A stretch of 64,000 nt of DNA, from assembly GCF_057098645.1 (NCBI RefSeq), contig NZ_CM169472.1. One strand, written 5' to 3'. This document shows positions 25,401 through 28,400 of the stretch, in pieces; the first letter of the stretch is position 1; each line of letters starts with the position of its first letter. Position numbers: made by a program.

Positions 25401-28400
25401 CCAGCGGCGCGTTGGTATGAAAACGCAGGCTCTGGTTGACGATATCGTTACTTAATGGCGCGGAAAGCCACACCGGCGTGTCGTTATCGGCCAGCGTCAG
25501 CAGCACGCTGGTGGTGGCGATATTCAGCGGCTGCCAGCCGCGTTTGAGCTGATGCAGGGCGACAATCACGCCCGGCTCGCTCATGGCCTTTAACAGGCGA
25601 CGAAAACTGTGCTGGGCATCCTGCACAGGAAGCATAAAAGCGGTTTCCAGGGTCATGCGTTATCTCCGCGAACCATCGTAAAGAAATCGACCCGGCTGGT
25701 GTTCACTTCGGCCTGGCGTGCGGCAATGCGTGCCATACGGTCAGCGTCCAGCGGGGCAATAAGGGTTTCTGATAAGTTTTGAAAATGGCGGGTTTGCTGC
25801 ATCAGCGCGTCAATCAGCGCGCAGCGTTCGGCGTGCTGTTTGTCGCGCCCCAGCACCCAGCTGTAGCCGAGCGTGCCGTCAGCCAGGCGTACGGCGGCGC
25901 GGGTGAGCGTGGCGTCGCCAGCAAAAAAGCGTTCGCCAGTGCCGCCCATCCGCGCCTGAATCTGTACCAGGCCGGTTTCAGCGGCGCGGATCACCTCATA
26001 GTCGGCGGTGATGTTCAGCGCGTTCAGGCGGGCTGCCAGTTCAGCCGGTTGGCTGTGCGCCAGTACGGACATCCAGTGCTGGCGGGTCGCGGTATCTGCG
26101 TGCATTCAGTGCTCCATAGTGAATTCAATCATGTCGGCGCGCGTCAGGCTGACGGAGTACTCCGCCGGGCTGCTTTCACCGTCACGGTGGTTAAGGGTGC
26201 GCACGCACAGCAGCGGCGACATATTCGGAATTTCAAGACGCTGACACTCTTTGGCCTGGGCGCGGCGGGCGCTGATCCGCGTCTGGCTGCGGCGCAGCGC
26301 AATTCCCGTTTGCTCGCGCAGAAAATCGTGCAGCGAACCGCTGTCGAAGCGTTGCAGCGTCGGCCAGAGGGTGAGGTCCGCAAAGTAGTGGTCGATTAAA
26401 CAGAGCGCGACGCCGTTGACCCGGCGCAGGGTGCGCAGGTGGATGACGTTCTCCCCCTCGGCGATACCCAGTGCGTCTGCGACGTGACCGGAAGCCGGAC
26501 GCAATACTGACAGCAGTTTTTCGCTGGTGGGATGGCTGCCCTGGTCCAGCAGGTTCTGGCTAAAACGCGCCTGGGCGTTGAGCGGGTAATCGAACGGGCG
26601 CATCAGCACCAGCACGCCGACGCCCTGACGGCGCTGTACCCAGCCTTTTTCCACCAGTTGGTCGATGGCGCGACGCAGGGTGTGGCGATTTACCTCAAAG
26701 CGCGCTGCCAGTTGCTGCTCGGCGGGGAGATAGTCGCCGCAGCGGTAGTGTTGACGAAGCTCCTGCTCAAGTTTTGCGGCTATCTCCTGATAGCGTGTTG
26801 GGTAGCTGGTCGGATGTGTAGACAAGTGCATAGCTATCAATGCCTCGCTAATCAGATAAAGTGCTTACGCAACCGTTGAGAGAGGAAATCCAGCAGACTG
26901 ACCGTGACGATAATCAGCACCATCAGGGCGCAGGTTTGCTGGAACTGGAAACCGCGAATCGCTTCCCACAGCGTGACGCCGATCCCGCCCGCGCCGACCA
27001 TGCCGACGACGGTCGCCGAGCGGACGTTGGATTCGAAGCGATAGAGGGAGTAGGAGATCAGCAGCGGCATCACCTGCGGCAGCACGCCGTAGAGGATCTC
27101 TTCGAGCTTGTTAGCGCCGGTGGCGCGAATGCCTTCCACCGGGCCGGGTTCAATCGCTTCCACCGCTTCGGAAAGCAGTTTGGAGAGCACGCCGGTGGTG
27201 TGGATAAACAGCGCCAACACGCCAGCGAACGGGCCGAGGCCGACGGCGACCACGAACAGCATGGCGAAGACCATTTCGTTAATGGCGCGGCAGGCGTCCA
27301 TCAGGCGGCGAACGGGCTGGTAAACCCACCACGGCACCAGGTTTTCGGCGCTCATCAGGCCGAAGGGGATGGAGAGAACCACCGCCAGCGCGGTGCCCCA
27401 GACGGCGATTTGCAGCGTGACGGCCATTTCGGTGAGGTAATCCTGCCACTGGCTGAAATCAGGCGGGAAGAAGTCGGCGGCGAAAGTCGCCATGTTGCCG
27501 CCGTCTTTAATCAGCGTGAGCGGGGCCATTTCCGCGCCCTGCCACGAGACGACCAACACGGCGAGAACAACGGCCCAGCTCAGAAGCGAGAACCAGCTGC
27601 GCTTGGGTGGGGCGATGGTGATGGTTTGCATGTTTGGCTCCGGTCTGTAGGCCGGATAAGGTGCTTGCACCGCATCCGGCATCAACGCCTGCACATTGTC
27701 GGATGCGACGCCGGGGCGTCTTATCCGACCTACGATTTACTGCACCGCTTTACTCACCGAACTCATCGCGCTTAGCGCGTTGTTCAGGCGGTCCAGGTCA
27801 TCCAGCTGCGCCTGAATCTCGGTGGTTTTTGCCAGCTTGTCCTGCTCATTCAGTCCTTTATTGCTTTTTACGCCCTGCATCTCTTTAAAGAGTGCGAGCT
27901 GGCGAATCGGCACCAGTTGCAGGTCGCTGGAGGCGCGGAACGGGGCCCAGCCCAGGCGTTCCAGCACCGCTTTCTCTTCCGGCGTCTTGCCGTAATTCAT
28001 AAAGAAGTCGTAGAGCTTGTCTTTGGTGGTTTCGGAAAGATTTTTGCGCCAGACGATCGGATCGCCTGGGATCAGCGGCGACTTCCAGATCACTTTCAGT
28101 TCTTTCAGCTTGTCCGGTGCGGAGGTTTTCAGCTTGTCGAGGTTTTCGGTGTTGTTGGTCGCCACATCCACCTGCTTGTTGGCGACGGCCAGCGCGTTGG
28201 TTTCATGCCCGGCGTTGACGGTGCGCTTGAAGTCGCTGGCGGAGATATTGTTTTTAGCGAAGACGTAGTAACCGGGGACGAGGAAGCCAGAGGTGGAGTT
28301 AGGATCGCCATTGCCGAAGGTGAGATCTTTCCGCTTCGCCAGCAGATCGTTCAGGTTGTTGATCGGGCTGTCTTTGTTGACGATTAACACGCTCCAGTAA

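Follow-up and report, generated by a model that had tools for sequence, protein, structure and literature searches.

The phnE gene of Escherichia coli K-12 is interrupted by a frameshifting repeat, and the same gene in another strain therefore raises a simple question: is it intact, and what would an intact copy tell us about phosphonate use and about the background of the strain? We address this question for a stretch of 64,000 nucleotides from contig NZ_CM169472.1 (assembly GCF_057098645.1), hereafter the window. A first-pass annotation had placed a continuous 259-aa permease gene at 26852-27631, predicted phosphonate use without prior mutation, and counted the gene among the arguments against a K-12 background.

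The reading frame of phnE and its 8-bp repeat tract

The coordinates and the length given for phnE are exactly right. The ORF listing contains one uninterrupted open frame of 259 codons on the minus strand, with an ATG at 27631 and an end at 26852, whose product terminates in the residues KHFI and matches WP_001193500.1 at 100% identity. The frame is open further in the 5' direction, where an ATG at 27682 and a GTG at 27694 would give proteins of 276 and 280 aa, respectively. Both of these starts lie within a REP/BIME element that occupies the phnD-phnE spacer (27650-27730, plus strand, opposite to phn; Rfam naRNA4 RF02564, 69.1 bits against a gathering score of 59.5), and for this reason they are unlikely to be used. 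A GGAG ribosome-binding site can be read from the sequence six bases 5' of the 259-aa ATG (27638-27641, minus strand), and PGAP selects the same ATG on the identical phnE sequence in RM9872 and RM13516. From the ribosome-binding site and the PGAP annotation we infer the 259-aa start in preference to the 276-aa and 280-aa alternatives. The Rfam scan returned REP-derived naRNA4 matches only, none of them inside phnE.

The encoded protein scores 311.5 bits against the NCBIfam equivalog TIGR01097 (cutoff 216.7, E=4e-93), in an alignment that spans profile positions 8-251 of 252, and matches the Pfam domain BPD_transp_1 (PF00528) at aa 88-258 with 91.8 bits. Because of these two matches, the frame is judged to lie far beyond a chance ORF. 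A family score above the cutoff, a BPD_transp_1 domain, and phnC and phnD as neighbours on the same strand together characterize PhnE, and on these sequence features the protein is assigned to the PhnCDE phosphonate/phosphate ABC importer as its membrane permease subunit. Among solved structures, those closest to it in sequence are of MetI-type ABC permeases. The stretch at ~aa 153-185 is presumably the cytoplasmic EAA loop, through which the permease of an ABC importer is coupled to its ATPase. An ORF of 304 aa on the plus strand (26861-27775) was put down as a presumed GC-rich shadow frame of phnE.

For comparison with K-12 we used positions 4310000-4330000 of MG1655, where phnE is annotated as the pseudogene b4583. 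The pairwise alignment, which had been proposed as a check on the intactness of the gene, gives a nucleotide identity of 97-98%, with 22 substitutions and one indel: an 8-bp unit that K-12 has and the window lacks. The indel falls in a repeat tract that consists of three units in K-12, GCTGGCGT GCTGGCGT GCTGGCGC, and of two in the window, GCTGGCGT GTTGGCGC, at 27211-27226 on the minus strand (gene nt 406-421, codons A136-L141). The count of three units against two agrees with the claim that K-12 phnE carries a frameshifting 8-bp duplication, and the alignment reveals neither the extra unit nor any other frameshift in the window gene. The K-12-type cryptic state, defined by three tandem units with a frameshift, is accordingly not what phnE of the window displays. 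Translated from the same ATG, the K-12 gene shares its product with the window up to residue 140, continues through 49 out-of-frame codons and then meets a stop; with this truncation the greater part of the ABC-permease domain is lost, and the EAA-type loop along with it. Deletion of one 8-bp unit in silico turns K-12 PhnE into a protein identical to that of the window at 259/259 residues, all 22 substitutions being silent at the protein level. The continuous permease ORF is therefore confirmed, and its product equals the repaired K-12 PhnE.

The extra K-12 unit GCTGGCGT has been placed at ORF nt 407-414 (Stasi 2019, PMC6469041), and PMC6469041 and PMC7566553, both citing Makino 1991, describe phnE as existing in three-copy and two-copy form. 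According to PMC6469041 and PMC4759930, and to Makino 1991 as cited there, K-12 derivatives that lose one 8-bp unit regain PhnCDE transport and phosphonate use. Two-unit phnE alleles are experimentally Phn+ and transport both phosphate and phosphonate (PMC6469041). Because the protein of the window is identical to the revertant K-12 PhnE that regains PhnCDE transport, the exact PhnE encoded here would be one already known to work, and by analogy with the revertants it is expected to transport phosphonates. The K-12 phnE+ revertants and the two-unit allele of Makino 1991 have the same number of units and the same 259-aa protein as the window; the revertant alleles differ from it by the 22 silent nucleotide substitutions, one of which is located within the second repeat unit. 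The cryptic K-12 gene b4583, by contrast, occupies the same locus in the same operon order, but adds a third GCTGGCGT unit and with it a frameshift and an early stop. The gene itself has been well studied, and the allele found here is its ordinary functional form; it is already known, and identical sequences in the public databases bear this annotation.

The phn operon and its close relatives

Phosphonate use depends on more than phnE, and we therefore checked the rest of the operon. The window contains 14 cistrons in the order phnCDEFGHIJKLMNOP, all with full-length frames, of which phnE is the third. The periplasmic phosphonate-binding protein PhnD (27737-28753, minus strand; 338 aa) is identical to its K-12 counterpart at 336/338 residues, and the ATPase subunit PhnC (28778-29566, minus strand; 262 aa) at 257/262. 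The genes phnF-G-H-I-J-K-L-M-N-O-P, which encode the regulator, the C-P lyase core, ATPases and accessory enzymes (18753-26831, minus strand), specify proteins of 241, 150, 194, 354, 281, 252, 226, 378, 185, 144 and 252 aa, respectively. All 13 partners of phnE have K-12 lengths, ATG starts and 96-100% amino acid identity to K-12; no internal stop or frameshift was found in any phn gene of the window, and in RM13516 the PGAP annotation lists each of the 14 genes as intact. The region upstream of phnC (29567-29698, minus strand), when aligned to K-12, displays a single difference in 161 aligned bases, and the ~130 nt next to the ATG are identical. In K-12 this region carries a PhoB-dependent promoter, as we take it from the K-12 literature. 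The phoBR and pst genes lie outside the 64-kb window.

With an intact phnE, 13 full-length partners and a K-12-like phnC upstream region, the prediction that the strain uses phosphonates without prior mutation is well supported. In the proposed sequence of events, phosphate starvation would lead PhoB to turn on the operon from the phnC promoter, the two 8-bp units would allow the whole PhnE permease to be made, and PhnCDE would import phosphonates, from which the C-P lyase pathway would then free phosphate; the 8-bp slippage deletion that is needed first in K-12 would not be needed here. Expression, transport and the growth phenotype of the operon are in this account deduced from the genes. 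We are highly confident that the locus is an intact, functional phnE allele, the third gene of a complete 14-gene operon, in an O145:H28 strain of the RM13516 type. An O145:H28-type strain of this kind would have the genetic capacity to scavenge phosphonates, as well as phosphate via PhnCDE, without the activating mutation of K-12. This matters little beyond correct annotation. The by-products of the analysis are a census of the cryptic allele, the loss of phnM beside an intact phnE, and synonymous interruptions of the repeat in several lineages.

In E. coli O145:H28 RM13516 (NZ_CP006262.1, 4927521-4991520) the window has a collinear counterpart, from which it differs by 14 substitutions in 64 kb and no indels; RM13516 is the closest of the complete genomes in the collection, none of which matches the window exactly. 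The phnE gene of RM13516, RM12761 and RM9872 (WP_001193500.1; 780 bp) is 100% identical to that of the window, and agrees with it in coordinates, in neighbours and in annotation. The RM9872/RM13514 lineage differs from the window by a shortened phnM, and RM9872, where phnM is short of 414 bp, was ruled out as the closest relative despite its 100% phnE identity. Most O145:H28 genomes among those listed (RM13514, RM12581, RM9872 and >20 more) share this combination of an identical phnE with a 414-bp in-frame deletion in phnM. The segment missing in RM9872 corresponds to window positions 20766-21179; the deletion is flanked by imperfect 12-bp direct repeats, GCTGC(G/A)CCAGTT, and takes out ~residues 150-287 (138 codons). 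Full-length phnM is retained in the window, RM13516, RM12761 and UTME-3. Strains of the phnM-deleted O145:H28 lineage probably fail to use phosphonates through C-P lyase, even though their phnE is intact. The status of phnE by itself does not predict the phosphonate phenotype, and an operon-wide check is needed because most of the listed O145:H28 genomes share the phnE gene yet have the phnM deletion.

Comparison with RM13516, RM9872 and MG1655 leaves 11 of the 14 differences from RM13516 private to the window (positions 1774, 1793, 5527, 15546, 19168, 19327, 30852, 33746, 46352, 51296 and 52949). Eight of the private substitutions are coding, and all but one synonymous change are missense or nonsense: Y387H and S380R in mdtP, R162H in mdtN, T4R in a sugar ABC ATPase, G115D and D62A in phnP, and W162* in rdcB. 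This pattern looks unselected, and may stem from very recent mutations or from errors in sequencing, or else from a source that is unsampled or altered. The nonsense change (TGG>TAG at 33745-33747) truncates rdcB/yjcZ (33262-34140, plus strand) at residue 162; RM13516 and MG1655 both have an intact copy.

The distribution of phnE alleles in E. coli

We surveyed the repeat tract by blastn at word size 11 with a 39-mer that spans it, which matched 5,394 records. An earlier census, made by megablast with diagnostic 39-42-mers, had left ~1,550 genomes unaccounted for, as flanking synonymous SNPs removed all 28-mer seeds; most of those sampled among the missed genomes carry two-unit alleles with flanking SNPs. 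The three-unit class, recognized by the 83% identity that corresponds to an 8-nt gap, comprises 997 of the 5,394 records (~18%), and the remaining records (~81%) belong to the two-unit class in various patterns. A 42-mer specific to the three-unit form finds 998-1,012 genomes, and of the 1,014 three-unit records found, only 3 depart from the canonical unit sequence. Among the three-unit records listed, roughly between a quarter and a third are laboratory derivatives of K-12, as estimated by eye from strain names and chromosome sizes. The others listed, by the same kind of estimate, are human, animal and water isolates whose chromosomes measure 4.7-5.4 Mb. The three-unit "cryptic" allele is neither specific to K-12 nor a laboratory peculiarity, but a polymorphism common in nature; an intact phnE is the expected, majority state in E. 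coli. Among the feature names listed, the PGAP label on the three-unit frameshifted gene is still 'phnE'.

Alternative readings of the intact gene

The intact frame had been taken, together with the neighbouring island, as an argument against a K-12 background. The conclusion and the island argument hold, but the contribution of phnE is weak: intactness is the majority state, K-12 reverts readily, and the three-unit allele is present in many non-K-12 isolates. The discriminating evidence is the island and the SNP pattern. The island, a sugar-utilisation segment (9.7 kb, 8662-18340), has no counterpart in MG1655 and stands in place of the K-12 genes alsK-alsE-alsC-alsA-alsB-alsR-rpiB. It contains genes for a response regulator, a carbohydrate kinase, a ketose-bisphosphate aldolase, a D-lyxose/D-mannose isomerase, a three-gene sugar ABC transporter and a hybrid sensor kinase, after which follows a GNAT pseudogene remnant (18075-18278). 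The island is carried by 421 of the 5,426 complete genomes, O157:H7 and O145:H28 strains for the most part. A K-12 strain that had become Phn+ by losing one 8-bp unit would encode an identical PhnE, and such revertants arise readily (PMC6469041, PMC4759930). It would not, however, be expected to carry the 22 phnE substitutions relative to MG1655, a phn operon (18697-30285) just 96.3% identical to MG1655, or the island in place of the als operon and rpiB, nor to agree with RM13516 at all but 14 of 64,000 positions. The probability of such a revertant is next to nil, and on these sequence comparisons a K-12 background is excluded, the Phn+ revertant included. The regions that flank the phn operon are 98.6-99.0% identical to MG1655, and the greater divergence of the phn segment relative to these core flanks suggests a different recombinational history for 18697-30285. 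A non-K-12 strain with an intact phnE might still use phosphonates poorly or not at all, if another step were defective, such as PhnP with its D62A and G115D substitutions or a regulator outside the window. Both substitutions are absent from RM13516, RM9872 and MG1655, Gly occupies position 115 in 37 of 75 full-length homologues, and a precedent exists in the sister lineage, in the >20 O145:H28 genomes where the same phnE accompanies a phnM short of 138 codons. Against a defect, position 62 is freely variable among the 75 homologues and Ala occurs there, position 115 also accommodates D, E, K, L, S and P, and the HxHxDH metal motif of PhnP (residues 76-81) is intact; phnM of the window is full length, and stops and frameshifts are absent from its phn genes. 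We regard a phosphonate-negative or impaired strain as very unlikely. The two PhnP substitutions are probably tolerated, with some loss of activity possible, and it is mainly on their account that the prediction of phosphonate use falls short of full confidence. The structure 3G1P is that of K-12 PhnP.

The functional allele could also be a transient one, with the two-unit tract as the ON state of a phase-variable switch that would go OFF, by acquiring a third unit, with appreciable frequency. Phase variation has reportedly been described for K-12 phnE, to judge from the title of the 2004 work of Iqbal and its citation in PMC6469041. The three-unit allele is common in nature, as the census indicates, and the K-12 change has been attributed to slippage between direct repeats (PMC4759930). 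The tract of the window, however, is interrupted by a synonymous C>T at 27217 on the minus strand (Leu139 CTG>TTG, position 2 of the second unit), which lowers the unit-to-unit identity from 7/8 to 6/8 and leaves TGGCG as the longest common run; slippage should be below that of the canonical 7/8 tract, and the three-unit records are almost all canonical in their unit sequence. Given the attribution to slippage between direct repeats, we infer that the interrupted tract should switch less often, and a frequently flipping switch appears somewhat unlikely, though with an appreciable chance. Among 5,426 complete genomes, 45 share the exact repeat allele of the window, namely those of the O145:H28 strains, of E. 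coli C, of WG5 and of NCTC122, and this allele is not the only interrupted form. The O157:H7 phnE, which likewise has two units, is intact, adjoins the same island with its operon and is 98.3% identical to that of the window, bears a different synonymous interruption, GCTGGTGT GCTGGCGC, in 309 genomes; strain D10 has a third, GCTGGCGT ACTGGCGC. Most of the other two-unit variants sampled differ in flanking codons only. The substitution at 27217 might act as a lock, suppressing slippage to the three-unit OFF state and holding the uptake gene stably ON in the lineage of the window, with O157:H7 and D10-type strains having arrived independently at the same result; we consider this doubtful. The data do not favour selection for such interruptions, because variation in the tract matches the overall diversity of phnE (identities down to ~96%), and three segregating sites in 16 nt are roughly what chance would produce.

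TRF did not call the two-unit 8-bp tract in the window. A terminator-like match at 27227-27212 was set aside, being the repeat tract itself, and five such matches were found where 3.6 were expected by chance. Another repeat in the region differs from K-12 in its copy number: the yjdN-yjdM spacer of the window (30206-30289) contains a single BIME-like unit (Rfam naRNA4, 99.9 bits), whereas in the same spacer of K-12 a BIME-like unit of 100 bp is repeated in tandem 5.8 times (15806-16385 of the K-12 comparison segment).
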